Below, one piece after another: positions 12,748-64,000 of a stretch of DNA of 64,000 nucleotides (position 1 is the first letter of the stretch; every line of letters starts with the position of its first letter). This DNA comes from a virus. Under the pieces are notes generated by a model. That model saw only the letters and a list, made by a program, of their open reading frames with translations, was not told where the DNA came from and did no database searches. The translations under genes were made by a program, and so were the position numbers. The stretch lies in the IMG/VR virus record IMGVR_UViG_3300033150_000870, positions 4,329-68,328 of that record, one strand, 5' to 3'.

Positions 12748-12936
12748 CTAACCACCTCTTATCGGCGCAAGAATTACTATCTTATCGTTCTCATCTATTA
12801 CATCGTCTAAATCCAACTTTATATGGACATCTCCTTTTTTCCTTATAACTATGAAGTTTTCGGGGATATTGTTATTATTTAAGAAATCTTTTACAGTTTG
12901 TTTTTTTTCGATTACATACTCTTCCATTTTGATCAC
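12748..12936 (-). CDS. ThiS/MoaD/SAMP-type ubiquitin-like protein, mature GG end
   Basis: TVKDFL...IDENDKIVILAPIRGG*. Confidence 0.85.
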   Translation of the reverse strand: MIKMEEYVIEKKQTVKDFLNNNNIPENFIVIRKKGDVHIKLDLDDVIDENDKIVILAPIRGG

Positions 12937-39084: not shown

Positions 39085-40739
39085 TTGGTAAGAAAAACAA
39101 AAAATCTTATTAAAAAATGGGGTAATGAATACGAAAAATCTACACATTATAACTACGCGGGAGCACCATCATTTTCACAACCCCTTGAATTAATGGTTCT
39201 CCAAAACTTGATGTGTAATGTCATCGAACCAACCTACTATGTACCCCAAGCCACACTCCTAAATCAAACCCTTGACCACTACTCCAAAATCACTGCGCAA
39301 AAACCAGAAACCCGATCCCAATACATTTCCCAAATTTTCCCCTCTTAACTACTGCTTTTTTTCCCCCTACTAACGGGCTGGATTTGTTTGCGCAGATGAT
39401 TGTTTATGCACGGGAAAAGGGTTATATGCGACTACAACCAATCATTGGAACGGTATTTCTTTCCACCCTCGATGATTACAGTTTATTCAAAAGAGTATTT
39501 ATGAGAGTTATGAAGACCCCCAACGATGTTATCGACTTCATTAATATCTGTAGAAACGGGAATATACGAAAAGGATTGGGGCGCAAGATAAAAAGAGTTA
39601 TCAACGAGTGGCTTTATAAAAATATTAACGAGTATTGGGCACTTAAATACAAAAATCAACTCCGAATCATTATAAGACTATGTCATCCCAATTTCAGTAA
39701 AATCTCAATATACTCCACATTGATTACGGATTGGATTATGGACTTTCAATATCCACAAAAACTCGATTATCTTGATGTTGCAACTGATATGCTTGAATCT
39801 CACTGTCCGCAAATATCCGCATACATCGATATGATCTCAGCTACTTCGGCGCAACAAATTCTGAATGCAATCAAAGAAGGAAGACTACCATACGAAATAG
39901 TCACGGGAGCAATAAAACCTGAAGCTGACGGTTGGAAGGAGTTAATGAAGCAGATGCCATATTTTGCTCTTTTGCGCCATTTAGTTACCTTTTATCGGAA
40001 TGGATTATTTGATGATAAGGAAGTAGTAGATTACATTTATAAAAGATTAATAGACAAGAAAGCCGTAAAAACTGCAATGATATTACCATTCAGATTTCTT
40101 GAGCCGATGAAACGAATAATAGATCGAAAAATACAGAAAGGATTAGAAAAAGCATTTGATAATTCATTTGATAACTTAGAGCCAATAGAAGGAGAAATCG
40201 TGATTGCAACTGATATGAGTGGTTCAATGGATAGTCCAATCAGTAGAAAGTCAAGTATAAAATTCTGTGATATTGCGGGGATATTAACTGCGGGTATATA
40301 TTGGAAGAATAAAGATCATTGTCGGGTTTTACCATTTAACAGTCATGTATTAGAATTTAGTCCAAGATCATTCAAAAGAGCAATTGACATAGCACAATGG
40401 TTCCACTACCCGGAGAATGGCACAAATTTATCTGCGCCGATAGAGTTTATGGAGATTAACAAGATTAAGGCGGATGTATTCATAGGAATCACGGACAATG
40501 AAGAATGGATGGGTACTGGTGTGATGAATGCATTGAAAAGCTATAGGATGAACATAAACCCGAATATGCATGCTTTTTTGATCCGAATTGATCCCTATGT
40601 CGAGGATGTGGCATTAAATCTTGATGACCCGTTGAATCATATTATTAGCGGTTGGAGTGACAATATCTTAGGATTCATCAATATAATATTAAAAGGAGAA
40701 GACTTAATTTCTAAGATACAAGAATATTTCCCCCTCTAA
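39085..40739 (+). CDS. Ro60/TROVE-vWA RNA-binding protein, spliced: join(39085..39309,39384..40739), 526 aa
   Basis: NYAGAPSF, YAREKGYMR, RKGLGRKIKR, MPYFALLRHL, ILPFRF, vWA DMSGSM, GTNLSAP and ITDNE; the two ORFs join in frame as KPE|LFAQ. Confidence 0.88.
39310..39383 (+). other. 74-nt archaeal bulge-helix-bulge intron in the Ro60 mRNA
   Basis: Exon helix CTGCGCAAAAA/TGTTTGCGCAG, central helix CCAG/CTGG, bulges AAA and ATT, intron helix CCCG/CGGG; canonical cleavage restores the frame. Confidence 0.85.
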
Positions 40740-47304: not shown

Positions 47305-48448
47305 AATAATATGCGGGGACGCAAGAGATGTTTTGCGCCAGATACCAGCCAATTCGATTGATATGTGTATTACGAGTCCGCCGTATTGGGCGTTGCGACA
47401 GTATGATGTGGAGGATGTAGTATGGAACGACGGGTGGCAAGGACAGCTTGGGTTAGAGCCCGACTTCAGAGATTACATAAGACACTTGAAGGAAATATTC
47501 TCATTAGTAAAAAGAGTGATAAAGAAAGAGGGAAGCATCTGGGTTAATATCGGGGATACCTACTACACAAAATCGGGTGGTAAATTCTTGAACGACCAGA
47601 TCAGCAATAATGAAAGAACAAAAGAAGCCGGGTTAGATAAAGCCAATGAACTGCGCCAAAAAGGATTACTACCCCCAAAATGTCTGGTCGGCATCCCGGA
47701 ACGGTTCGCAATAATGATGACGGATGAACTTGGACTTATTCGGCGCAACACAATCATATGGCACAAACTCAATCCAATTCCTTCGAGTGCCTCTGATAGA
47801 TTTACTATCGATTTTGAATATCTTTATTTTTTCGTGAAGTCGCGTAAATATTATTTCGAGCAACAATTTGAGCCGGCATTACGAAAGATTCCAGCTGGTA
47901 AAGTAGTGGGCGGAAAAAAATATATTGGTATTTCGACATCGGGAACAGTATTTGATGATAGTAGAAAAACTCGAAATAAAAGATGTGTATGGTCATTATC
48001 AGTTCAACCATATTCAGAAGCTCATTTTGCTACATTTTCTCCCAATCTATTAGAAGTTCCGATTAAAGCATGTTGTCCGCAGTGGATATGTAAGAAATGT
48101 GGAATTCCTCGAATGCCTATCTTCAAAAAAATCAAACTAAAAGAAACGAATATTAAATATGGGGGTGTAAAACATGTTATATCAGAATGGAACAACAACC
48201 CAACTTATTCTGGGAAAAAATATGTGATTTATGATCATAAAGTTGGCTATACAAATTGTGGTTGCAATGCGGGGTTTGACAATGGGATTGTATTAGACCC
48301 GTTTATCGGCGCCGGAACTACTGCGGTGGTAGCTCGAAAGTTGGGTCGTAATTTTATAGGGATTGAATTGAGTAGGAAGTATATAGAGATAGCAAAGAGA
48401 CGACTAAGAAGAGAGATTGGAACTGAAATGATAAGTAAATATATATGA
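47264..48448 (+). CDS. Beta-class amino (N4-C/N6-A) DNA methyltransferase
   Basis: TSPPYW, HFATF and VLDPFIGAGTT. Confidence 0.93.
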   Translation: MWRCGKNMEEFRNKIICGDARDVLRQIPANSIDMCITSPPYWALRQYDVEDVVWNDGWQGQLGLEPDFRDYIRHLKEIFSLVKRVIKKEGSIWVNIGDTYYTKSGGKFLNDQISNNERTKEAGLDKANELRQKGLLPPKCLVGIPERFAIMMTDELGLIRRNTIIWHKLNPIPSSASDRFTIDFEYLYFFVKSRKYYFEQQFEPALRKIPAGKVVGGKKYIGISTSGTVFDDSRKTRNKRCVWSLSVQPYSEAHFATFSPNLLEVPIKACCPQWICKKCGIPRMPIFKKIKLKETNIKYGGVKHVISEWNNNPTYSGKKYVIYDHKVGYTNCGCNAGFDNGIVLDPFIGAGTTAVVARKLGRNFIGIELSRKYIEIAKRRLRREIGTEMISKYI

Positions 48449-49236
48449 GGGATAATATGAAGTTATTTGATGATTTTTTTCGGAGCATAAATTTCGATTA
48501 TAAGATCGTGGATGAATATAAGACAATCTATGTGTTGGTTTCAGGGGGCTATGATTCTACATTGTTGCTGGAATATTTTTCGGCGCATTATAGAGACAGA
48601 GTAGTGGCGGTGAATTGCTATAACCCGTATGAGAATAGTAGGACATTGAAAGAGATAAGAAAGAGATATAGATATATAGAGATCAAGCCGGCTAAGGGAT
48701 TGGATTACAAGCAGATATTAGAGGATGCATTTTTGATGTTAAATAGACAAGCAATCGAGAGACATAAAGGGGTGTATGACAAAAAGGGTTTTAATTGCTG
48801 TTATAATATCAAGCACAAGGCATTTCTTTCCGATCCGTTATTCAAACAGAGTGGTTGTGTGGTGATAAGTGGTATAAAGGCGGGAGATGGAAAGCATAGA
48901 TATTATTTTTTGAAGAAGATTAGGGATCAAGATACTTTTTTCCATCGGCATGCCGGCGGACAACTGTATTGCTATCCATTCCGAGACTATCGACATAAAG
49001 AATTACCACCCGAAATTAAACTGAAGTTAAAAGAAAAATATCCTACTATTTCCCACTCTGGTTGTGTAGTCTGTCCCGTTATTGTGTTATTTAACTTGGA
49101 AAAGGAATCATCACGATATTACCGATCATTAAATTATTTAAAAAGATTGATTGATGAAGGAAAATTTAAACCTAATAAATATCTATTAAAGTATAATCCA
49201 AAAATTGCTAATACATACTTGACAGAGGTGTTGTGA
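48445..49236 (+). CDS. PP-loop/PAPS-reductase-like protein
   Basis: VSGGYDS, CC..IK and SGCVVCP. Confidence 0.75.
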   Translation: MRDNMKLFDDFFRSINFDYKIVDEYKTIYVLVSGGYDSTLLLEYFSAHYRDRVVAVNCYNPYENSRTLKEIRKRYRYIEIKPAKGLDYKQILEDAFLMLNRQAIERHKGVYDKKGFNCCYNIKHKAFLSDPLFKQSGCVVISGIKAGDGKHRYYFLKKIRDQDTFFHRHAGGQLYCYPFRDYRHKELPPEIKLKLKEKYPTISHSGCVVCPVIVLFNLEKESSRYYRSLNYLKRLIDEGKFKPNKYLLKYNPKIANTYLTEVL

Positions 49237-52636: not shown

Positions 52637-52689
52637 TTTTTTTCTTTCTTTTTTTGCGCCAAATAATTTGGAATATGAGATGGTGGAAA

Positions 52690-52960
52690 GGCTTTTAAAA
52701 AGCGCTGAAAATCACAAATTAAAACTTAAAACCGGGAATTTTTTTATGGATATATAAATTTGGGGTTTTGTCGTATTTTTTTGATTAGAGAATGATAGTT
52801 GGCGGGGGAGTTGAATTTTGTTGATTGTCGGGAAGTATTCAAAACCTTATCTTATTGATTTACAGGTTTAGTGCGAGGGTCGAAAATATAAAAGTGGAAA
52901 TATTTAAATATGAAGATGTCGAAATAAAATGTGTATATATACAAACAAAATGAGGTGATG
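52690..52960 (+). repeat. Intergenic repeat element, copy 1 (includes TATA and SD)
   Basis: GGCTTTTAA..AGCGCT, TTAAAACTTAAAAC, TCGTAT, TTGGCGGGGGAG, TTTACAG, AATATTTAAA. Confidence 0.75.
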
Positions 52961-53017
52961 CCATGCTCTTGGTTTTGAAAAAAATAAAAACGGATATATA
53001 TGTATTAGTAAAAATGA

Positions 53018-55908
53018 ATGGAGGTAATAATTTTGAATGAATATAAAGATAAAATAATAGATATGGAAACCACATTTAAGAAAGCAGATAAACTTGCTAA
53101 CGAACTTGCAAATGTATGTGATGGAAAACAAAGGCGTGTAATATTGATTGCTTGTAGGTTGCTATTAGTAAAAGTAATCCTCAATATGTTACATGAACTT
53201 GATGACGAAAATGATAAAAAAGAAATATTATTAACAGAGATTGGCGCAAGTATAAATGTGCTTACGAATACTATTATTGAAAACGGGATAAAAATAAACG
53301 ATGAAGAGATAATAAAAGAAGTGAGGGATGCAATACGGTTCGCAAGAAATACACCACGATAATATTACCAAAAAAGAAATATAATGAAATCAAAAAGATA
53401 ATTACTAACTTCTATCCCACAGATAATAATACACAAAAAGTAATCTCTAATCTCAGTATGCATAAAATACTATTCTATACTCTCAAGTTTGCACATCAAA
53501 ATAAATTTACCTTTAAAACATTCTTAATTAATGAGGTGATGAATAATGGCTCGTAAGCCTTCGACAAATACTCAATTAGCAAGAAAGGAAAATGCAATAC
53601 AAAACATCCTTGCAAAAATAACAAATAAAGAACCGCTCACCCCAGAAGAATCTCAGTTGATCGCAGGAGCATATGTGTTCTATAATGTCAATTTGAATAA
53701 GATTTCTGCGCAGGTAAAAAAGGTGAAGGATGCGATCAAATATTCAATGGAGAATAATAATATTACCCAGCTTGCGACGAATGATCCATTAATATTCCTT
53801 GAGCTGACAAGACCCACTGTTTCAGTGCCCGACACGAAATTACTTGTTGAAGTATTATCTCCCGAACAGCTTGCAGAAGTGATAAAAACAATAGATAGGA
53901 ATGCTCTCAAAAAATATGTCGATCCGAATACCTATGAGAAAATTATGAAAAAAGAACCCGCATCATTCACAAAGCTTGAAATTAAAATTCGTGAAAATGA
54001 AAAAGTAAAATCATTGACATCAAAACAATACGACAAAATTACTGCTAAGAAGATGTTAATGCTGGAGTGATACTATGTTATATGTTAATTGTCCAAAATG
54101 CAAAAATACCAAAATTGTCGAGAATGAAACTGATATTATAGTATGTGATATATGCGGACATCAATTCATATTAAGTGAGTGTTATGAAAATAATAGAGGT
54201 GATTAAATGACTAAAATAAAGAAAATAATTGTTGAATATGAAGATGGCGCAAAAATCAAATACGCCACTCTCCACGATCTCATTACAGATTTTTTTGGAG
54301 AGATTTGCGAGGATATTTGTGAAGATTGTGACTTAAAGTTTGCGGAGGCAATGTCAATTGAACGAATTTGAAATACCAAAAATTAAAATGTCTCGTGAAG
54401 AACTTAAACAAATATTACTAAAATACTTCATTGATGGCGTGGAAATAACTTCAACAGACCCTAGATTATGCTTGAAGGCAAGGGTACGAGGCTATCAATT
54501 TCGATTATGTTTCGGGTGTGTGCCGTTCTTTCGTAATAACTGTTTAAATCCACATATTACAATGGATCGATTACTTGCTATCTATAACTTTTTCACTCTA
54601 ATCAGATATATCACAAACCCCGATATTGCATTGAAACCTAACGGCCCAGATAGAATCAAAATGCAAGCACGAATATTCAAACGAAGCTACAAGGCGATGT
54701 TAATTTGAATGACGATAAAATTAAAGAAACCTTAAAAAATGACCTTGAAATTGCAAAAGACATTCTCACTAAGATACAGCCCTACATTGAAAATATGACT
54801 CCCCACCAAATATTATCTCTTGCGCAGTATCTCAATGTTATCGGACTGAGTCAAGTAAGCAACCATATTAATTTAAAAGACAAAAATGAAAAAAGAAACT
54901 TCATTAATATTGCTTTCAAACTTGTTATTGATCCCTTACAGTTCATCTTCTTTAAAAATAATATAAAATGTGATATAAATTTGAAAATACAAAATGAAAA
55001 TAAAAATGAAAATTATATAATATAAGGTGGTGATAATTTATGGAAGAAATATTTGAACAAATAGGAATAACTATTGAAGAAGTACAACGAGTATTTGCAG
55101 ATGCCGATAAAATAATAGAACAACTGAAAAAAATGCTACAAGGTAAGCCACTCATAACATCATTACTCGTCGGAAATTTCTTGTTATCACTAACAGTAAA
55201 AAGATTGGCGCAAAAATTTGGACTTGAAACCCACGAAAAAATAAAATCATTTGCCGATATGACGGGGAGCTTATTACTTGCGCCCCTTGAGGAGGCATTT
55301 ATGGAATTTAATAAAGAATATGATGTTGATGTAGTAGTTAAAAAAAGGAAGTGATATAATGGATGAATATAATATAGATTTAACAGAGCTACTTAAAGAG
55401 TTAGGTGCATCTTCAAAACAAATTAAAAAAATACTTTCTGATGTCGATGAAATACTAAAAAAGATTGATCCTATTGTTGATAAAAAAAATATTTTAACCG
55501 TAATTTTCGTGAATGCCTATCTCTCCTTAGGAATCATCGAGAATATGATGGAAAAACTAAAACCAAGTACTCCAAAAGAAATAAACTATTTCATAGCGCT
55601 AATGACACATATACTATTAACTCCCCTCCAAACTATACTAGCTGATTTAGGATTCAATTCACATATAATAGTGGAAGACAATGATTTCAAGAAAAATGAG
55701 AAAAAAACGAAAAAGCACAATTACATTACCTAAAGAGGCATTAAAAGAAATTCACAACCTTCGATCAACTATCTTCAAAGACGAAAAAGAACTCCAAGCA
55801 ATTATAAACGCTATGCCTATATGGAAATTTTGTGCAATCGCAGTTCTTTTTGCGCACCACAACTCTTTTTCTTTTAAGAAGTTTTTCGAGGAAGTGATGA
55901 ATAAATGA
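53018..55908 (+). other. Small-gene module: helical paralogues (53018-53362, 54705-55025, 55040-55354, 55359-55733), RHH-like paralogues (53335-53556, 55681-55908), 53546-54070, zinc ribbon 54075-54206, 54340-54708
   Basis: Co-oriented ORFs with SDs; mutual similarity seen by eye. Confidence 0.65.
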
Positions 55909-56765
55909 ATGGGTATTGTATATTTCATCGTTCTCGTAAGTATAAGACTGATACATGCGATATTTACACACCACACTCAATATATACCAGTAATACGGGA
56001 ACTTGCGAGTCTTGTGAATACTTCGTTAAACCCAGTAATATTATCTATGCAGTTGATAGCCCACCAAAAGACACACTCATATATGATGAAGCGATGGTTT
56101 CTCGTTTCCTCTCCACAGTATTACCCCCTCTCGAAAAATCGGAACTTATTGTCATCCAGCTCATAGCACGCCGAAAATATTCATCTCTTGTCGAGAAAAG
56201 CAATATTGTTTGCGCCAAAGATTATATTCACCACAAATCCGATCCTATCACGAAGATTAAGAGAATGGCGCGATGCAATGAACTATATATTGCCTATGAT
56301 AGTGGTCAGTATCTTCCTATGTCAGCATTCGGGCTGTATATCAACTTGAATCCAAAGGATGGGCTACGAGGATATTTCACATTCTCCGCAGATGCCAATA
56401 AAAGAATAACTCAATATATTAATACCGAAAATCCCGAACATAGACCCAGCTTTTCTAACATTTTCAGTCTTCTATTCTCCGCAGTCACCCGCAGTAACTC
56501 CCGCAAACTCTATACCCTCGTCGATATTGACAAAAAAGATGAAGAACTGCTAATCAAAATCGTGGAGCTTATCGGCGCCGAACATATTATATGGGTGACC
56601 GAAACACACGGCGGGTTTCATATGATTGTGAAGAAAAACAAGGAATCATCAGCACGAGTCTATCAGATAAAGAACGATGTGATCCATATACATTCCGAGC
56701 CACTCACAGTCATACCAGGTACGGTGCAAGGCGGGTTTATGGCTCGCGAGGTGGTGTTTGTGTGA
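55905..56765 (+). CDS. Second AEP-superfamily-like protein
   Basis: LVDID and ETHGGFH resemble AEP motifs I and II. Confidence 0.5.
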   Translation: MNGYCIFHRSRKYKTDTCDIYTPHSIYTSNTGTCESCEYFVKPSNIIYAVDSPPKDTLIYDEAMVSRFLSTVLPPLEKSELIVIQLIARRKYSSLVEKSNIVCAKDYIHHKSDPITKIKRMARCNELYIAYDSGQYLPMSAFGLYINLNPKDGLRGYFTFSADANKRITQYINTENPEHRPSFSNIFSLLFSAVTRSNSRKLYTLVDIDKKDEELLIKIVELIGAEHIIWVTETHGGFHMIVKKNKESSARVYQIKNDVIHIHSEPLTVIPGTVQGGFMAREVVFV

Positions 56766-57301
56766 ATAAAATTAAAGAATTAAAGGAATTACATATAAAG
56801 ATAAATAAAATATTAGAAGAAATGGAAAAAATAACGGTGGAAAAGGGAATTAGATTTCTAAACGAATTAGATGAATCAGAAAAAAAGAGAGTAGATGAAC
56901 TAACAAAAGAACTAGAAATATTAATTAAAAGAATGGAACAAGAAAAAAAGAAAATTGAACAGAAAAAAGAATATCTCAATTTTAAATATCATTGGCTAAT
57001 GGTGTTATCTGGCGTCATACCTCTATTAATAATTGCTTGTATATTTGAACCGTTTTCTTATTCAAACTATTTAATGGTAATCGCTACAGTTGTAATAGTC
57101 ATAGTTATAATAGTTTGGCTATTTATGATGTGTATTATTGAGGGAGAATTACAAATGAAACTTGATTATCTTGAAAAAACGAAAACATTAACAACATCTA
57201 CTTATAATTATATTTTAATGGCATTTAAAAATGGAATCGCTATAAGAAGATGCGAAACGATAGATATGGCTATTATTATGATGGTGTTAAAAAATTCGTA
57301 A
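56762..57301 (+). CDS. Coiled-coil plus two-TM membrane protein (start re-called)
   Basis: GAGGTG SD, then a GTG overlapping the previous stop. Confidence 0.6.
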   Translation: MNKIKELKELHIKINKILEEMEKITVEKGIRFLNELDESEKKRVDELTKELEILIKRMEQEKKKIEQKKEYLNFKYHWLMVLSGVIPLLIIACIFEPFSYSNYLMVIATVVIVIVIIVWLFMMCIIEGELQMKLDYLEKTKTLTTSTYNYILMAFKNGIAIRRCETIDMAIIMMVLKNS

Positions 57302-57317
57302 TTTGAAGTTGTAAAAA

Positions 57318-57590
57318 GGCTTTTAAGAAGCGCTAAAAATCACGGTTTTGGATTGAAACTTAAAACTTAAAACTTATTTTTTTATTATTATATTTTTCGT
57401 ATTAGTCGTATCAAGAATACTTGGGGGAGGAAATAGGTTTTTGGTGGGTTGTGGGGATGCTATTTTTTTACAGATTAATTAAACGGAAAATATTTAAAAA
57501 GGATGAAGACATTGACTACATATATAAAGAAAAAGTTTGGCATATAACTTGTAAAGTAGTGTATATTATAAATAATTAAAAAGGAGTGTG
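57318..57590 (+). repeat. Intergenic repeat element, copy 2
   Basis: GGCTTTTAAGAAGCGCTAAAA, AAACTT x3, TCGTATCAA..ACTTGGGGGAGG, TTTACAGATT, AATATTTAAA. Confidence 0.8.
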
Positions 57591-57598
57591 ATAGCCCA

Positions 57599-57862
57599 AT
57601 GGGTGTTGATGAATTTAATGAAAATGTTGATGAAGTTAAAAAAATTAAAATTAAGGTCTTTTTATCGGGTGTTGGTGACCGAGAAATAGAATTAAATGAA
57701 GGTGCTACGGCTGATGATCTTATTGATATACTATCTAATGAAGGCTATTGGAAGCCTGGATATTACCTTATGCGAAATGGTAGGTTAGTTTTTGGTTCTG
57801 ATACATTAACTAATGGATGTGCTTACTTAGTTTCATGGAAGGTTCATGGTGGTACTCTCTAA
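57599..57862 (+). CDS. Ubiquitin-like protein, precursor ending GG-TL
   Basis: IKVFL..GDREIEL..GATADDL...RNG...KVHGGTL. Confidence 0.85.
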   Translation: MGVDEFNENVDEVKKIKIKVFLSGVGDREIELNEGATADDLIDILSNEGYWKPGYYLMRNGRLVFGSDTLTNGCAYLVSWKVHGGTL

Positions 57863-57917
57863 TCTCTAATTTTCCTTATTTTTTTTGTACTTCTTATTTT
57901 TTGTAAGGTGACAAATT

Positions 57918-58652
57918 ATGATTGATATACGATATATTATTAAAGAGTTAGAGAAAATAGAGAATATTCACGATATTGTAATCTATGATTCTCAGAATTT
58001 CGGGTTTTACTATGATTATGAGATTAAGTACAACGATTTAATACAAACTGGTACTGTGTTCATTGATGTTCTATGTTGCGCAAATAATGAATATGAATTT
58101 ATTGAGCATTACCATGAAAAAATATTTAAATATTACATAGATTCTGAGCGAAACGAATACTATCATCCTCACATTAGTGTATCAAGCAGTTTTCTATGCT
58201 TGGGAGAATATTCAGAAATTATTGAAAAAACGATAATGAATATCGAGAAAATAGAAGATATGTATCTATTCACAATAAACATAATTTTAAATGTGCTAAA
58301 TAGCTATAATGCATACGACAAATACTACGACATTTTTACACCAATAAATGATGAAGATGATTACGACGAAGACGACGACGGATACATTGGAACATGTAGC
58401 GAGTGTGGAACGGAAATATACGAAGGATACAATTACTACCATTGTCACGAATGCAATGAAATATTGTGTGAAGACTGCTACTACTTCTGTGAAACATGTG
58501 AAGAAGTGTATTGCAGTTATCACTTGAAGCCATGTCAAATATGTAGTCAAATGGTGCATTGTGAGATTCTATGTTGGATGTGCTATTCTTTTATGCGTAA
58601 ATTTCTAAGGATACTCTATAGGTTCGTTAATTTTGAAGGAGATGATGAATAA
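57918..58652 (+). CDS. E2-like conjugating enzyme fused to a multi-CxxC zinc domain
   Basis: YHPHIS...LCLG catalytic motif, acidic linker, repeated CxxC. Confidence 0.75.
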   Translation: MIDIRYIIKELEKIENIHDIVIYDSQNFGFYYDYEIKYNDLIQTGTVFIDVLCCANNEYEFIEHYHEKIFKYYIDSERNEYYHPHISVSSSFLCLGEYSEIIEKTIMNIEKIEDMYLFTINIILNVLNSYNAYDKYYDIFTPINDEDDYDEDDDGYIGTCSECGTEIYEGYNYYHCHECNEILCEDCYYFCETCEEVYCSYHLKPCQICSQMVHCEILCWMCYSFMRKFLRILYRFVNFEGDDE

Positions 58653-59459
58653 ATGACCAAAATTATATTAGTAATTCCCAAAAAGGCGTTTAATTTTCTT
58701 TATGACTTACTTTATGCAGTAGATACCGAGTTCGTACTGTTGTTTTCAGCATATAGGCGTTCAAAAAGCAAACAAAAGATCATTATCGAGATTGAAGACA
58801 TCTATTATTTGAAACAAACAAATACACGAACAAGCACTGAAATAGATGAGCGAGAAATGGCAACATTCATAGAGAATCACAAGGAATTATTCACAAATTA
58901 CGACAAAATAATGTATAATGAGAAAATAATCGGTTGGATTCATTCACACAATACAATGGGAGCATTTTTTTCATCAATCGATAAAGCTATGAATAATCTA
59001 ATAGCTGGATTTGCGGGATTCTCGGTAGGACTAGTAATTTCACGAACTAAAGATCAAAAACTCGAATATTACATTGAATATACTGAAGATGGCATAAAAC
59101 AGACTGACTACGAATTAATACAAAACAATATGTATAGACCTAACACTAATTACCTAAAATATATAAAAGAAAAAGAAAAAATCATAAAAGAACTGAACGA
59201 ATTAAGCGATATTGATGATTTTGAGTATCCATATCCGTATAACTATGAAAAAACAAAAACAAACAAACTGGATGTAGAAACAATAAAAACGATATTATAT
59301 TCTTATGACGAACAAGAAGTATTAGAAGCAATACATAAATATCTCAACGAAACATACCCAACACCAGACAATTATATGAAATTACAAGAAATTATAGATG
59401 ATCTGTGGGATTTACTCAATGAATTTAGCGAGTTATCAAACTTTTACGGGTGGTATTAA
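58653..59459 (+). CDS. JAB/MPN+ metallo-isopeptidase
   Basis: DTE...GWIHSHNTMGAFFSSID. Confidence 0.9.
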   Translation: MTKIILVIPKKAFNFLYDLLYAVDTEFVLLFSAYRRSKSKQKIIIEIEDIYYLKQTNTRTSTEIDEREMATFIENHKELFTNYDKIMYNEKIIGWIHSHNTMGAFFSSIDKAMNNLIAGFAGFSVGLVISRTKDQKLEYYIEYTEDGIKQTDYELIQNNMYRPNTNYLKYIKEKEKIIKELNELSDIDDFEYPYPYNYEKTKTNKLDVETIKTILYSYDEQEVLEAIHKYLNETYPTPDNYMKLQEIIDDLWDLLNEFSELSNFYGWY

Positions 59460-59462
59460 ATT

Positions 59463-60191
59463 ATGCCTCGATATGAAGGATTCTTTAAATATTCTACGGA
59501 AAGACAGCGAATTGCATTAATCGGATGTGGGAGTCTTGGCTCATATACAGCGTTATTTCTATCAAAATGTGAATTTCCATTATATCTCATTGATGGTGAC
59601 ATTGTAAAGTTCGGTAATTTCAATGTTCAATATTACGACATTCGCGACCGATACGAACTCAAAATAACACGGTTGGAACATAAAATCATTCATAACTATT
59701 GTTTCCGAGATATTGACGATCCAGTAATTACAAGTCCTTATTTCATTCAAGCACATTCTAATCACCCGAAAATCATTCAAAACTTCAAAAACATCAACAT
59801 ATTCATTATAACTACTGATTCCATTCAAGCCAGAAGGAACACATTCAAACTCATTAAAGAAACTAATCCAAACTACACGATAATAATAGATGCTCGATCT
59901 GGAGGCGCAAAATACGAAATATTTACCATTATTCCCGAAACGACAATTGAAAATACATGGAAATACTCACTATCGGGTAAATTTAACGATGAATTTCGGT
60001 GTGGATTCAAGGAACTTCCGTTTGGGTCAGCTTATTGTGCGACATTGATTTGCAGAACCCTTATGAACTATCTTTACTACGATAAGTTTCAATTCTACCA
60101 ATCCTATGACTTTTTAAACGATATTTCAATGAAAATGACCGAAAAAGAATATGTCAAATTTGAACAGCAATTGAGAGAGGCGCAAAAATGA
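59463..60191 (+). CDS. ThiF/E1-like activating enzyme
   Basis: IGCGSLGS, IDGDIV..GN..VQ, TTDSIQAR, IDARSG and RCG. Confidence 0.9.
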   Translation: MPRYEGFFKYSTERQRIALIGCGSLGSYTALFLSKCEFPLYLIDGDIVKFGNFNVQYYDIRDRYELKITRLEHKIIHNYCFRDIDDPVITSPYFIQAHSNHPKIIQNFKNINIFIITTDSIQARRNTFKLIKETNPNYTIIIDARSGGAKYEIFTIIPETTIENTWKYSLSGKFNDEFRCGFKELPFGSAYCATLICRTLMNYLYYDKFQFYQSYDFLNDISMKMTEKEYVKFEQQLREAQK

Positions 60192-60325
60192 AAAACCTCC
60201 TACTCTACATTGCTCTAATCTTCGTCATCATTGCTTTTTACATCAGAAGGCGCAAAAAATCCCGATACGAAAACAAAAAATATGAGCGAATTAATAGAAG
60301 ATACACTCGGAGGCGCAAAAAATGA
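60188..60325 (+). CDS. 45-aa membrane-anchored basic peptide (not in ORF track)
   Basis: MKNLLLYIALIFVIIAFYIRRRKK...; ATGA overlaps at both ends. Confidence 0.55.
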   Translation: MKNLLLYIALIFVIIAFYIRRRKKSRYENKKYERINRRYTRRRKK

Positions 60326-60603
60326 CCGAGTTTCGAGATAAATTATTTCATATCTATTGTGAGTATCGTAAAATATACATTGACCTACAGCACGACAAAA
60401 TAAGTTTCGATGAGGCGTTTTTGTGCGCCAAAAAATTATACTATCGAGCAAAAGAGTTATACAAGCAATATAACCGACCCTTACCAATTTATCATACCTT
60501 TTTTGACAAGTACGATAATGATTTCGATGACATTTACTATATATCAATGGTAGATTCAATCAATACAACATTCTTAGCCAAAAAACTTGAGCGTTTTGAA
60601 TAA
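60322..60603 (+). CDS. Hypothetical protein
   Basis: GGAGG SD; last gene of the ubiquitin module. Confidence 0.6.
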   Translation: MTEFRDKLFHIYCEYRKIYIDLQHDKISFDEAFLCAKKLYYRAKELYKQYNRPLPIYHTFFDKYDNDFDDIYYISMVDSINTTFLAKKLERFE

Positions 60604-60631
60604 TACTTTTTTAGTAATCTCTTTTTTTGAT

Positions 60632-60875
60632 AAACCTTTTAATAAACACTAAAAATTATAAATTAAAACTTAAAACTTAAAACATATAAAACTGATTTTG
60701 TAATTTTTGTTTTTATCGTATTGTTAAGACTTGGGAGAGAGAGGATTCCCGGTTTTGGGTTAAAATGCTTGGCTAATTTTACAGATTTAACGGCTTTATT
60801 AAAACAGATAAATATAAATATGTTAGTGTAATTTAATAAAATTGTATCTATTAAAAAATTCAAAAGGAGGCTTGA
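60632..60875 (+). repeat. Intergenic repeat element, copy 3
   Basis: CCTTTTAA, TTAAAAC x3, TCGTAT, ACTTGGGAGAG, TTTACAGATT. Confidence 0.75.
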
Positions 60876-60881
60876 TAGTCT

Positions 60882-61058
60882 ATGTTTGTAAGTGTTGTTG
60901 AAGTGAATGAAAAAACAAAACTAAGAGATTTACTTGAAAGAATTGATTTAGATTATATATATATTGTTGTCAATGGTAAAATTATAGAAGACACAGATAT
61001 AGAAGTAAATCCCGATGATGAAGTATTATTAATTCCTATCATAGCTGGTGGTGCATAA
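60882..61058 (+). CDS. ThiS/MoaD-type ubiquitin-like protein, precursor ending GG-A (not in ORF track)
   Basis: Hand translation MFVSVVEVNEKTKLRDLLERIDLDYIYIVVNGKIIEDTDIEVNPDDEVLLIPIIAGGA*; GGAGG SD. Confidence 0.85.
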   Translation: MFVSVVEVNEKTKLRDLLERIDLDYIYIVVNGKIIEDTDIEVNPDDEVLLIPIIAGGA

Positions 61059-61060
61059 AA

Positions 61061-62051
61061 ATGAATTGTGCTCGATGTGGTAAAGAATTACATCAAACTT
61101 TCATTGACGAAATAGAAATAGATGGCTATACAATCGAGTTTGGCTATGTTTGTTGTGAATGTTTTGATGAACTAAAAAAACAAAACAAAATAACAATAAA
61201 AGATAATGAAATAAATGAAATTAAAAAACGATTGAAGGAATTAAAACAAGAAAAAGAATTAGAGAAACATAAAGAAATATTAGATAAATTTGCTAATGAA
61301 TTCGGATTAACACATCTAACTTATCTACGATTAAAAGAAATATTACCAGCATTTATGCCATTTCCTCGAATAAAACACCATCATTGTTCATGTGGTAAAA
61401 GAATTTACATAAAAAAATACAAAATGTGTTATGACTGCAGATTACGACATAGACAATACTATCATTCAAGAAAAATATACGGAACAGATTGGAAATTGGC
61501 GCGAAAAATAAGAGAAACACCCCCAGAATCATTTAAAATTGATACACCATTCCTTTGTGTGTTTTTTAACAAAAATGTATTTCAATTTAGCAATGATAAG
61601 CGAACAGCTCAATATCGAACTGCACCAATCGATAAAACTCACTACATTGATAACTCAGATTTGAACTACAGAACGGAAATTGTCTGTAAAGCCGTAAAAG
61701 ATCATAGATCATACTCATTCTTGTGGATTGAAGCATATACTTACAATAAACACGAAATTGACGCCATAAAAAATGACGATACATTAACAATTCAACAAGT
61801 TATCAAGAAAATAAATGAAAATATTCAATACTACGAATTTAGAGCGTGATTAAATGAAGTTAATAAAACAAGTATCTGAATATTTCTCAATAACGGAATC
61901 TGAGGCGCAAAACATTATTGCTCGGTTCAAAATCAAATCAATCCGTGATTGCGACAAGAAATACAATGATATTGTTGATTATTTAGAACCCAAATCTATT
62001 TTTTATAGTGTGCGATATAATTATGTGCGCCCTAAGTATGATAAATCGTAA
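61061..62051 (+). other. Zinc-finger protein (61061-61849) and small hypothetical protein (61854-62051)
   Basis: CARC, CCEC, CSCG and CYDC. Confidence 0.6.
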
Positions 62052-62068
62052 TTCTTTTTTTTAAATTT

Positions 62069-62325
62069 GGCTTTTAAGAAGCGCTAAAATTTTCATATTA
62101 AAACTTGAAACTTAAAACTAGCTGTTTTTTGTTATAAATTATTATTATATCGTATCAATAAAACTTGGGAGAGGAAGATTCCTTCTAAATGCTCAGTTTG
62201 ACTGATCCAGGCTCGGTTTTTATGTGTTAATTGGTCATTCTTTTGTGATAATCTGTAATCGAAACTTATATATATCAAATCTTACATATATTATATTGTA
62301 TCTCAAAAAAACAATTAGGAGGTTT
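62069..62325 (+). repeat. Intergenic repeat element, copy 4
   Basis: GGCTTTTAAGAAGCGCTAAAA identical to copy 2; AAACTT array; TCGTATCAA..ACTTGGGAGAGG. Confidence 0.8.
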
Positions 62326-62331
62326 GATAGC

Positions 62332-63391
62332 ATGGCGTGTGAAAAAATCAATGTGTTTGAAAATGATTTTGACGAATTAATTAGAGATTTTACGATTGAT
62401 AAAATAGAAGAGTATATATCAAAAGTATTTAAAGAAAATCCAATGGCTCGAACTACAGAAACTATTTTTGAAATAAAACGATTGAACTACAAAAAATTAC
62501 ATGATTTTACAGAAGAATTTGTAATTATGCAGTTAGAAAAAGAGAATTTGGATAAATTAATAGAAATAGAAAATTATATCACTAATTGTGTAGAATTTAA
62601 TAAAATAATTGATGAATTTGCTTTACGAATTTTTGCTTCTATGCTCTAATTTACTCTTTTTTTTTTTGTACATATATTGTAATTATAGGTGTGAAATGAT
62701 GGTCAGAAATATGATGAAATATAAAGTAAAATATAAAAAATATAGAATAAAAAATAGGAGAAATAAAGAAAGAAAAAATAAAGGAGTGTGATAGAATATG
62801 GGATTAGATCTTAGATTGATTCAAGAATTTGTAATTTTGCGTAAAATTTTGGGATATGAGCAAATCCCGATAAAAGCGATACTAAAGTCATATAATAATA
62901 ATGAAGATATATTAAAAATTATCAATATTTACATTAGGAGAATCAATCTTATTAAAGGATGGCATCTAGCAGAACTTAAAGATACTATGTTTTTGAACGC
63001 GGGCTATGTACCATTGAATATATGGGAGAGTGAATAAGCAATGGTAGGAATAAAACGAACTTGTGAAATGTGCGACAGCTTGGCTCAGTATGTTGTTTGG
63101 CGCAGAAACACTGATCAAGTAAATTTCTATTGCGAGCAACATTTTGATTCAATACATTTGCTAATCGAAGACACTATGATTGATCTTAAGACATCAGATA
63201 CAATGAGATTACGATATTTGAAAGTAATTGAGATTTTATTAGACTACATACATGATTACGACCGAAATTGGAGCGACACAAACACACTTCACTTTTGGGA
63301 GGACAACGCAGTCATAAAACAACAACAAGCATTACAAGAGATAATACATCATTGTAAAAAACTATTGGCACTTCTTGAGGCATATCGTTAG
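62332..63391 (+). other. Small hypothetical CDSs (62332-62649, 62798-63037, 63041-63391)
   Basis: GGAGG/GGAG SDs; no family recognised. Confidence 0.55.
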
Positions 63392-63410
63392 TAATCTCTT
63401 TTTTTCATTT

Positions 63411-63500
63411 TGCTTTTAATATGTGTTTGAAAATCATCATTAAAACTTTAAACTTCACTCTTTTTTTTATTCATTTTTCACTTCATTATTTATTCGTATA
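63411..63500 (+). repeat. Intergenic repeat element, degenerate copy 5
   Basis: GCTTTTAA...GAAAATCA..TTAAAACTTTAAACTT...TCGTAT. Confidence 0.5.
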
Positions 63501-63805
63501 TACTTCTTTTTACCCAAATTTTTCCCGACTAAAACACCATAAAAGGGCGCAAAACACCCATCAATTGAACTCCCAAACTCTGGCCTGGATCGGGTAAATT
63601 TCCCAACAAAACCTTTAAAAATCTTATACCTACCATATGGCACCCATAAAACTTATAAATGTTTCGATTTTGACACATCCGTAAATTTTATAAATCTTTC
63701 GACTCGATCCTGTAATTTTTTTCGATTTGTGCATTGTCACATAATTAAATCGTCATTTGGAGTCTGGTCTTGATACAGGATAACAATTAAAAAAGAACGG
63801 ATGAA

Positions 63806-63946
63806 TTAGAATTGATTTTTATAGTATTCGGATAATTCTTCAGACAATTCTTCACATTTAATATATAATTCTTTCACATTCTCAAAAACTTCATCAAAAA
63901 CCCAACGAATTTCTATTATCATATCTTCAAAATCTTCTTTTTTCAT
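63806..63946 (-). CDS. 46-aa acidic protein (not in ORF track)
   Basis: AAGGAGGT SD, then MKKEDFEDMIIEIRWVF... Confidence 0.45.
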   Translation of the reverse strand: MKKEDFEDMIIEIRWVFDEVFENVKELYIKCEELSEELSEYYKNQF

Positions 63947-64000
63947 TTTTCTACCTCCTTAAATTGAATTAATACATTCTAAGGCTATTTTTCGGAATAA

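Follow-up and report, generated by a model that had tools for sequence, protein, structure and literature searches.

Can a virus encode, in its own genome, a whole ubiquitin-like conjugation cascade, from the protein tag to the enzymes that activate it, transfer it and take it off again? This question is raised by four adjacent genes of IMG/VR virus record IMGVR_UViG_3300033150_000870, which we have analysed computationally in a stretch of 64,000 nucleotides (the window, corresponding to bases 4329-68328 of the genome; coordinates are window positions unless marked as genome positions). The genome is a single contig of 68,328 bp with a direct terminal repeat of 114 bp and is, therefore, a complete viral genome. 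An earlier note, made by reading the letters of the window, had described the four genes as a conjugation operon consisting of a ubiquitin-like protein (Ubl), an E2-like protein with an added array of cysteines, a JAB peptidase and a ThiF-type E1. Within the reach of computation, each of these assignments has survived testing, and our answer to the question, given with some reserve, is that the virus probably does encode a self-contained and working Ubl conjugation cascade. The four open reading frames (ORFs), which are all present on the plus strand, are the following.

57599-57862, plus strand: Ubl1, 87 aa, an ORF ending in ...KVHGGTL
57918-58652, plus strand: ORF2, 244 aa, an E2-like N-domain followed by an acidic linker and a Cys/His array
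58653-59459, plus strand: JAB/MPN+ (JAMM) metallopeptidase, 268 aa, above the PF01398 cut-off and with a JAMM motif
59463-60191, plus strand: minimal ThiF/MoeB/UBA5-type E1, 242 aa, assigned by ThiF, PADLOC, NCBIfam and PHROG profiles and by alignment with UBA5

These genes form a tight run, separated by 55, 0 and 3 nt, and a Shine-Dalgarno-like purine-rich motif stands before every one of them.

Ubiquitin-like proteins, peptidase and activating enzyme

The tag comes first in the run. Ubl1 ends in HGG-TL, as had been noticed in the earlier note, with the two glycines at positions -4 and -3 and two residues beyond them, which makes it a pro-form. The sequence evidence for its family is thin (Pfam ThiS, E=0.041; best match among PDB sequences MoaD 1vjk, E=0.086). 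The ESM Atlas holds a model of Ubl1 itself, with a predicted local distance difference test (pLDDT) score of 0.75, and all of its 10 structure rows are beta-grasp proteins, with template modelling (TM) scores of 0.67-0.78; these rows include ThiS (TM 0.78), SAMP2 (0.68), ubiquitin (0.68) and RnfH. The suggestion that the neighbouring JAB would be needed to expose the Gly-Gly of Ubl1 has, by analogy, two precedents. In Bil operons, whose order is Ubl-E2-DUB-E1 (DUB standing for deubiquitinase), BilC trims BilA after a conserved Gly (10.1101/2023.09.26.559546), while in Caldiarchaeum subterraneum an Rpn11-like JAMM must cut pro-ubiquitin before activation by the E1 (PMC5654768).

Ubl1 is not the only tag. 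Beyond what the earlier note had listed, the genome encodes two more Ubls and a second E2 of the ubiquitin-conjugating (UBC) type, which is described further below, so that Ubls number three and E2-type proteins two, besides a single E1 and a single JAB. The two additional Ubls, and a gene that directly follows one of them, are the following.

60882-61058, plus strand: Ubl2, 58-aa ThiS-family protein ending in ...AGG-A, that is, one residue past GG (PF02597, E=9.5e-9)
61061-61849, plus strand: 262-aa protein with several CxxC pairs, 2 nt past Ubl2, with no significant family match
12748-12936, minus strand: Ubl3, ThiS-like protein of 62 aa whose last residues are ...RGG (ThiS, E=4.5e-5, 20.5 bits)

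Ubl2 scores above the cut-off of PF02597 (36.1 bits, and 35.3 bits in a second search), and its upstream leader is like that of Ubl1 (AAAAGGAG..TGATAG); together with the 262-aa Cys-pair protein, it may form a second small Ubl module. Ubl3 ends in a free GG and therefore requires no trimming.

The peptidase is readily recognised. It passes the Pfam PF01398 cut-off (33.9 bits for a cut-off of 22.5 bits; E=3.2e-8), its best PDB matches are AMSH, Rpn11 and CSN5, and its motif HSHNTMGAFFSSID, which reads HxHx7SxxD (HSHx7SxxD) and is found once in the genome, aligns residue for residue with the motif of AMSH/STAMBP. The intact HxH...D site listed in the earlier note is borne out. Glu26 (in 'DTEFVLLF', read by eye) is a candidate for the upstream catalytic Glu, and a C-terminal extension of ~120 aa continues beyond the recognised domain.

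For the E1, which is the sole ThiF-type match in the genome, several independent collections of profiles point the same way. The protein matches 21 PADLOC 'E1-E2' models (best E=3.4e-7), which we take to be Cap2-type, the NCBIfam ThiF equivalog NF006395 (E=2.3e-9) and 6A-MBL cap2_3 (E=2.3e-5), and phrog_15670 (E=1.2e-6 over residues 10-204); among solved structures, UBA5 comes closest to it (E=0.0045). At the level of motifs, 'GCGSLGS' (GxGxxG) and 'LIDGD' (Asp-x-Asp after strand 2) align with UBA5 and Escherichia coli MoeB, 'TTDS' stands at the position of MoeB 'CTDN', and Cys180 (in 'FRCG') is a candidate crossover-loop cysteine in a region, past residue ~60, where the pairwise alignment with MoeB is unreliable.

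Three features count against a working E1. (i) The match to Pfam ThiF (PF00899, E=4.7e-6) reaches 25.7-26.4 bits, just below the cut-off of 28.1 bits, a near miss; the PADLOC, NCBIfam and PHROG profiles and UBA5 agree on the family. (ii) Ubiquitin-fold domain (UFD), rhodanese domain and separate or inserted Cys domain are all missing from the protein, whose 242 aa could not accommodate them. (iii) Where UBA5 has 'NMNRL' and MoeB 'NLQRQ' (the latter aligned by eye over a MAFFT gap), the viral protein has 'NFNVQ', Val replacing Arg. The Arg of this N-x-x-R motif contacts the phosphates of ATP, and its replacement is the main doubt that the sequence casts on the predicted activity.

The family relationships of the Ubls and the E1 would also fit a different pathway, in which these genes serve sulfur transfer in the manner of ThiS/ThiF/JAB carrier systems (of which CysO-MoeZ-Mec+ and QbsCDE are examples). 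JAB would free the GG, the E1 would adenylate it, a thiocarboxylate would donate sulfur to a cofactor or to the modification of nucleic acid, and ORF2 would stand outside the pathway. Indeed, the Ubls are ThiS/MoaD-like by sequence, NCBIfam places the E1 closest to ThiF equivalogs, a PAPS-reductase-like gene occurs in the genome (48445-49233), and ThiS-JAB-E1 clusters have been tied to sulfur assimilation (Iyer et al., 2006). Among the ORFs scanned against Pfam, however, there was neither a rhodanese nor a cysteine desulfurase nor a sulfurtransferase. Moreover, the PAPS-reductase-like gene lies 8 kb off in another module, a protein with a predicted UBC fold and a conserved Cys is wedged between Ubl and JAB, and the genome encodes a second UBC-like E2. 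We consider a sulfur carrier highly improbable for these reasons, and conjugation remains the reading to be examined, which brings ORF2 to the fore.

ORF2, its zinc array and a second E2

Whether the cascade is complete depends on the E2, and two proteins compete for this role. Their parts are the following.

57918-58346, plus strand: ORF2 residues 1-143, a domain of E2/UBC-like type in which His83-Pro84-His85 precedes Cys94, the candidate catalytic residue
58350-58382, plus strand: ORF2 residues 145-155, acidic linker DEDDYDEDDDG, absent from the relative P0002
58395-58583, plus strand: ORF2 residues 160-222, Cys/His array, defined by its ligand positions and conserved in P0002
genome 2847-3557 (L002), minus strand, outside the window: P0004, 236-aa UBC-like E2, with UQ_con and PDB E2 matches

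The E2-like HPH...C motif that had drawn attention to ORF2 is present. In the stretch HPHISVSSSFLCLGE, His83-Pro-His85 is followed by Cys94, giving HPH-x8-C, a spacing that equals the classical E2 HPN...C spacing, where the canonical His lies ~8-10 residues before the catalytic Cys. The corresponding pattern, HP[NH][IVL]x5-9[ILVMF]C[LIVM], occurs once when the ORFs of all six frames of the genome (55,839 residues) are taken together, compared with 0.015 times per shuffled set.

The family to which ORF2 belongs is tiny. A word-based search for relatives in 5.8 billion proteins returned ORF2 itself only, an exhaustive scan with HMMER, covering 1.84 billion representatives, returned a single relative, the 300-aa P0002 (E=1.8e-4, 32% identity), and a search with a two-member profile made from both found the same two proteins again and no others. 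P0002 shares the build of ORF2 (His-Pro-His, Cys, 'CLG' and a long Cys array), without the acidic linker. The motif is HPH-x8-C in ORF2 and HPH-x7-C in P0002, with His83, Pro84, His85 and Cys94 invariant in the two sequences (2/2), and there is no His after Cys94 that they have in common. Searches for the source contig of P0002 gave no pattern match in viral contigs, and none of the 278 + 27 pattern matches in metagenomes was confirmed.

Structure prediction is what links this orphan domain to E2s. While the AlphaFold2 (AF2) model of whole ORF2 was discarded (pLDDT 38.2), that of the N-domain has confident parts (helix 1, three long strands and a long helix spanning residues 112-129), and was compared with 48,161 representative chains by an aligner that is independent of Foldseek. 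The best chain was Cap2 (7to3_A) from CBASS, the cyclic oligonucleotide-based antiphage signalling system (Z 7.6, root-mean-square deviation 4.2, 115 residues), followed by Ubc13, other E2s, UFC1, Atg10, RWD domains and FANCL; judged by their titles, 36 of the best 50 rows belong to the E2/UFC1/Atg10/RWD/FANCL group. Upon realignment of the Foldseek top 1000, 132 chains reached Z>=5, and 47 of the best 50 rows were E2/UFC1, covering residues 1-145 of the model, which is the entire E2 core. Among the 46 weak rows listed by Foldseek itself, 17 are E2-type, and the Atlas's own model of ORF2 (pLDDT 0.72; 10 rows) resembles a ThiF+Prok-E2_B cluster (TM 0.55) and a bacterial UQ_con cluster (TM 0.54). 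The earlier note had beforehand made its E2 reading hang on the presence of a UBC fold; the N-domain model matches almost exclusively chains of the E2/UBC superfold, and the refuting outcome named in the note did not arise.

A number of results nevertheless weigh against an E2. By sequence, the N-domain has no match in Pfam, NCBIfam, PADLOC or PHROG (at E<=1 in Pfam, ORF2 matches C1_2 on its zinc part alone, with no UQ_con or Prok-E2 match), a PDB profile search with it found nothing at E<=10, and hhalign gave a probability of 1.6% when ORF2 was compared with P0004, the UBC-like E2 of the very same genome. The N-domain model is weak (mean pLDDT 58.8, predicted TM score 0.58), with residues 55-107, which include the active-site motif, below a pLDDT of 50. 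Its Z values, 7.6 at most, are all <8 and thus middling by the aligner's own scale, and Foldseek searches of PDB and BFVD gave nothing significant, no E being <0.26. Finally, RWD/UEV domains have a UBC fold without catalysis, and non-catalytic RWD domains are present among the structural rows of ORF2. Taking everything together, support for the fold is moderate, and we think it likely, on the strength of the model, that the N-domain has a UBC-type fold; that it is a catalytic E2 is probable because its HPH...C motif is conserved.

The remainder of ORF2 is as had been described, with an acidic linker and a long CxxC array fused to the E2-like domain. Residues 160-222 contain 18 Cys/His, chiefly in CxxC pairs, which amounts to ~8 ligand pairs, enough for ~4 Zn. 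The first six ligands are spaced C-x2-C-x12-C-x2-C-x4-C-x2-C, and the array has weak matches alone (FYVE domain 6w9n, E=0.0064; Pfam C1_2, E=0.039). A cross-brace module of the RING/ZZ/FYVE-like type is plausible; that the array acts as an E3 or as an adaptor is our conjecture.

P0004, the second E2-type protein, lies ~7.5 kb past the E1, across the terminal repeat. Its C-terminal half matches Pfam UQ_con (E=1.6e-4, and 22.9 bits in a six-frame search) and RWD (E=5.3e-4) below the Pfam cut-off. At E<=1, the matches of the protein extend to 62 PDB sequences; of these, 60 were listed, mostly E2 chains, with UBC7 (4jqu, E=7.6e-4) in first place. It displays the motifs YPNVPPK, HQN and C-x7-WHP, the distance from HQN to the Cys being ~11 residues longer than usual, and its N-terminal ~100 aa have no assigned domain. 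None of 71 candidate relatives in genome contigs was confirmed.

Owing to the presence of P0004, ORF2 could be an E3-like protein or an adaptor, in which case P0004 would be the real E2 and the Ubl would travel from E1 to P0004 and onwards by ORF2-assisted transfer. P0004 is the more canonical E2, with its UQ_con and PDB E2 matches. FANCL, for its part, combines a fold of the UBC/RWD type with a RING-like zinc domain at its C-terminus, and, together with RWD domains, it is among the best structural rows of ORF2 (ranks 2, 10, 12, 19 and 30). A pure scaffold, however, would have no need for the His-Pro-His and Cys94 that are kept in both members of the family, it is ORF2 rather than P0004 that sits between Ubl1 and JAB with a spacing of the translational-coupling type, and P0004 has oddities of its own (the sub-cut-off Pfam score and the extra residues before its Cys). 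We therefore regard this division of labour as unlikely, and retain ORF2 as the probable E2 of the four-gene run.

The virus and its accessory arm

What kind of virus carries these genes? The genome encodes a large terminase, a portal, an HK97-type capsid protein, a tail sheath and baseplate J, and therefore belongs to a contractile-tailed virus, with a GC content of 28-41% and no tRNA genes found. Its replication genes (family B polymerase, PolB; an RPA_C-containing protein; a KaiC/Rad51-like ATPase; ERCC4 nuclease; RNase H; a weak PCNA_C match; an RPC82-type helix-turn-helix) have an archaeal/eukaryotic flavour. In tblastn searches with the terminase, the longest match was to Methanobacterium virus PhiF1 (22.6% identity over 85% of its length) and the most identical short match to Halogranum tailed virus 1, with Thermus phages among the matches too. 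Archaeal/eukaryotic-type replication genes and terminase matches in archaeal viruses make, therefore, an archaeal host likely. An Asgard host was not adopted, its sole basis being a gene list in common with the published Nidhogg viruses. A search of genome contigs with the DNA methylase gave matches in bacterial metagenome-assembled genomes (MAGs) only and was uninformative on the host, and none of 36 candidate terminase relatives in viral contigs was confirmed.

Relatives were located by means of a PolB alignment, seeded from a 4,035-bp scaffold (L004) that is filed under a bacterial MAG (G001). This scaffold encodes a methylase (41% identity) directly followed by PolB (38% identity over 795 aa), which is the same order as in the virus studied here, and it is probably a viral fragment misbinned into a bacterial genome; the MAG in question has no relative of the E1 or of ORF2. 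Directly after the N6/N4 DNA methylase of our virus comes the PAPS-reductase-like gene mentioned above (48445-49233, plus strand), whose product is a PAPS-reductase/QueC-like protein of the ATP-pyrophosphatase type (phrog_424, E=2.1e-6); it may be a DNA-modification gene, and it is not in the methylase-PolB fragment of the relative.

Two viral records were found in this way. One of them (G003) has PolB alone in common with our virus; the other, G002 (66.6 kb, 98% complete), is truly related to it, with matches for 27 of 114 ORFs, including capsid (59% identity), terminase (43%) and sheath (41%). G002 has no match for any ORF of window 52,637-64,000 or of genome 1-4,328. Together, these two segments make up an arm of ~16 kb (52637-64000 plus genome 1-4328), consisting mostly of small ORFs, that holds all the genes of the Ubl toolkit except Ubl3 and represents the variable, accessory part of the genome in this lineage. 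The four-gene set is an accessory, lineage-specific cassette, because G002, the sole truly related near-complete virus found, is without it, while Ubl3 is in the conserved part of the genome. The homologue of Ubl3 in G002 (L035:1495-1737, minus strand) ends in KGGM and stands beside a glycosyltransferase common to both viruses. Ubl3 has been retained in G002 although no E1 is detectable there.

In G002, the linkage of the four genes is not conserved, which counts against the cascade. Searches of G002 and G003 with ThiF, with the ORF2 profile and with UQ_con were negative (0/2 each), and the JAB search gave a single 12.5-bit blip within a 611-aa ORF, which is no clear JAB. Further afield, tblastn of the JAB and of the E1 against 50,697 phage records, and blastn of the whole 2.6-kb gene set, gave no match; a word search for relatives of the E1 returned the E1 itself only, and 0 of 26 candidates in viral contigs were confirmed.

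The accessory nature of the module agrees with a scenario without any conjugation, in which the set would act mainly against the host's own tagging, JAB stripping host tags of the SAMP, Urm1 or ubiquitin type from viral proteins, and E1, E2-like protein and Ubls being decoys or sponges for host enzymes. The E1, lacking its conserved Arg, could fit such a scenario. In addition, Borg elements of archaea have multiplied JAMM peptidases that have been proposed to counter SAMPylation by the host, and a viral answer is plausible since the bacterial Bil defence tags phage tail proteins. But decoys would need neither trimmable pro-Ubls, nor three different Ubls, nor a conserved Cys94, nor the full Ubl-E2-JAB-E1 order, and the remaining nucleotide-binding motifs of the E1 are all kept. 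Decoys without conjugation are, in our opinion, quite improbable, and we return to a cascade that conjugates.

Downstream of the E1, and elsewhere in the genome, several features complete the picture.

60188-60603, plus strand: two small ORFs, of 45 aa (hydrophobic N-terminus, basic tail) and 93 aa, with no family matches
60731-60752, plus strand: terminator-like hairpin, the only one in 56500-62500, between the six-gene run and Ubl2
39384-40739, plus strand: Ro60-like protein, TROVE + vWA_Ro60 (phrog_850, 'RNA-binding protein')

The starts of the 45-aa and 93-aa ORFs overlap the preceding stops by 4 nt, and both ORFs are probably on the same transcript as the four-gene run. Evidence for the hairpin is weak, with 1 found for 2.0 expected in shuffles. 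Two other small ORFs were noticed, a 43-aa zinc-ribbon ORF (54075-54206, plus strand) with weak matches, all sub-cut-off, to several ribbon families, including Prok-RING_1 (E=9.2e-4) and IBR_1 (E=1.8e-3), and a 149-aa ORF (L002:1823-2272, minus strand) with no family match, in which a stretch that is beta-grasp-like by eye occupies the first ~88 residues and closes with '...TTPDILGA'.

A putative cascade and its known counterparts

How might such a cascade work? The following scheme, in which the chemistry of each step, the choice of Ubl by the E1 and the nature of the targets are inferred by us, accommodates the four gene products. (i) JAB would cut off the two residues past the Gly-Gly of Ubl1, and probably also the single Ala of Ubl2. 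(ii) The ThiF-type E1 would adenylate the exposed C-terminal Gly with ATP, and may hold the Ubl on a cysteine, for which Cys180 is the candidate. (iii) The Ubl would be handed as a thioester to Cys94 in the N-domain of ORF2. (iv) The zinc array of ORF2 would recruit the target, or otherwise serve as a built-in E3-like or adaptor part. (v) The Ubl would finally be attached to a lysine, in a protein of either the host or the virus, from which JAB could remove it again. As for its purpose, the module is most likely a device for host takeover, counter-defence or competition between viruses, rather than for construction of the virion, because it sits in the lineage-specific accessory arm. Candidate roles are proteasome-based host takeover, protection from a Ubl-based defence of the host and exclusion of rival viruses.

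Operons combining Ubl, E1, E2 and JAB were already known in prokaryotes, which is why the earlier note had considered the type as not wholly new, and Bil operons have indeed the same gene order (10.1101/2023.09.26.559546). The virus shares with BilABCD of types I/II (classes 6d/6c of Iyer, Burroughs and Aravind) the order Ubl-E2-JAB-E1, a trimmable Ubl tail and an E1 without UFD; BilD, a multidomain E1 devoid of UFD, still binds its own E2 (10.1101/2023.09.26.559546). Bil excludes phages by tagging the tail fibre. There are, however, clear differences. The E1 of the virus is a single domain of 242 aa whereas BilD is multidomain, ORF2 has a zinc array, and the carrier is a virus and not a bacterial defence island. 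Furthermore, E2s of class 6d lack the classical His that precedes the Cys and carry a conserved His downstream of it (PMC1779556); in ORF2, by contrast, Cys94 is preceded by the classical HP-H, and none of the His residues that follow it is conserved. None of the PADLOC and NCBIfam profiles ties the viral proteins to Bil.

A second counterpart is the Caldiarchaeum/Asgard operon, which comprises ubiquitin, E1, E2, a small RING protein and an Rpn11-like JAMM. Likenesses are the adjacent JAMM for a pro-modifier (trimming being predicted in the virus), the presence of an E2 and a zinc-finger component in one compact cluster and the best solved relatives of the viral JAB, which are AMSH, Rpn11 and CSN5. 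In contrast to that operon, the zinc part of the virus, RING-like at most as a candidate, is fused to the E2-like domain, Ubl1 is ThiS/MoaD-like by sequence (although ubiquitin is among its structure rows), the E1 is much smaller and too short for a UFD, and ORF2 has no UQ_con match. The gene set resembles both the Bil and the Caldiarchaeum/Asgard operons but does not belong to the former and probably not to the latter.

Type II CBASS, with Cap2 and Cap3, comes close in other respects, since Cap2 (7to3_A) is the best row for the N-domain of ORF2, the E1 matches cap2_3 and a JAB is adjacent. In the virus, however, E2 and E1 are separate genes and the Ubls have free-standing genes of their own; of the ORFs scanned against family profiles, none matched a CD-NTase. 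SAMPylation is not known to involve an E2, whereas the virus has two E2-type proteins. With the SAMP/UbaA/HvJAMM1 system, it shares Ubls of the ThiS/MoaD type ending in GG, one small E1 and a tag-removing JAMM (PMC4443979, PMC4895103).

Among viruses, the closest case is that of the Nidhogg viruses of Helarchaeota, which have a ThiF/E1-like gene reported to be near UBA5, the host supposedly supplying E2 and Ubl (10.1101/2021.07.29.454249; Rambo et al.). The likeness to our virus, which is one of gene list alone, extends to a tailed archaeal-type virus with Ro60 TROVE+vWA, ERCC4, RNase H, a RecB-type nuclease, PolB, a hexosyltransferase and an E1-like protein; the difference is that the genes for Ubl, E2-like protein and JAB are viral in the present genome. 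The earlier note had mentioned ubiquitin components in Asgard viruses, and this holds for the E1-like genes of Nidhogg viruses, the other parts not having been found in the accessible literature on these viruses. More generally, the accessible literature on archaeal viruses yielded these E1-like genes as the only parts of a Ubl system (supplements of the preprint may list more), and no literature linking magrovirus with ubiquitin was found.

Although long held to be eukaryotic, ubiquitin-type conjugation has since come to light in certain archaea and in anti-phage systems of bacteria. A virus with a whole cascade of its own would expose the virus side of the ubiquitin-type arms race, and would offer biochemists a very small E1/E2 pair whose members are separately encoded. 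The orphan E2-zinc-finger family of ORF2, with two members in 1.84 billion representatives, is a candidate single-chain E2-E3. The boldest form of the idea, which we consider doubtful, is that an archaeal (possibly Asgard) virus runs an autonomous eukaryote-like E1-E2-E3 cascade with a fused E2 and RING-like ligase, fed by three Ubls and a second E2, in order to tag the virions of rivals or proteins of the host (the latter, for instance, as proteasome substrates). If true, it would mean that ubiquitin-type signalling is hijacked by viruses in prokaryote-grade cells, and that there is a new type of E2-E3 fusion ligase.

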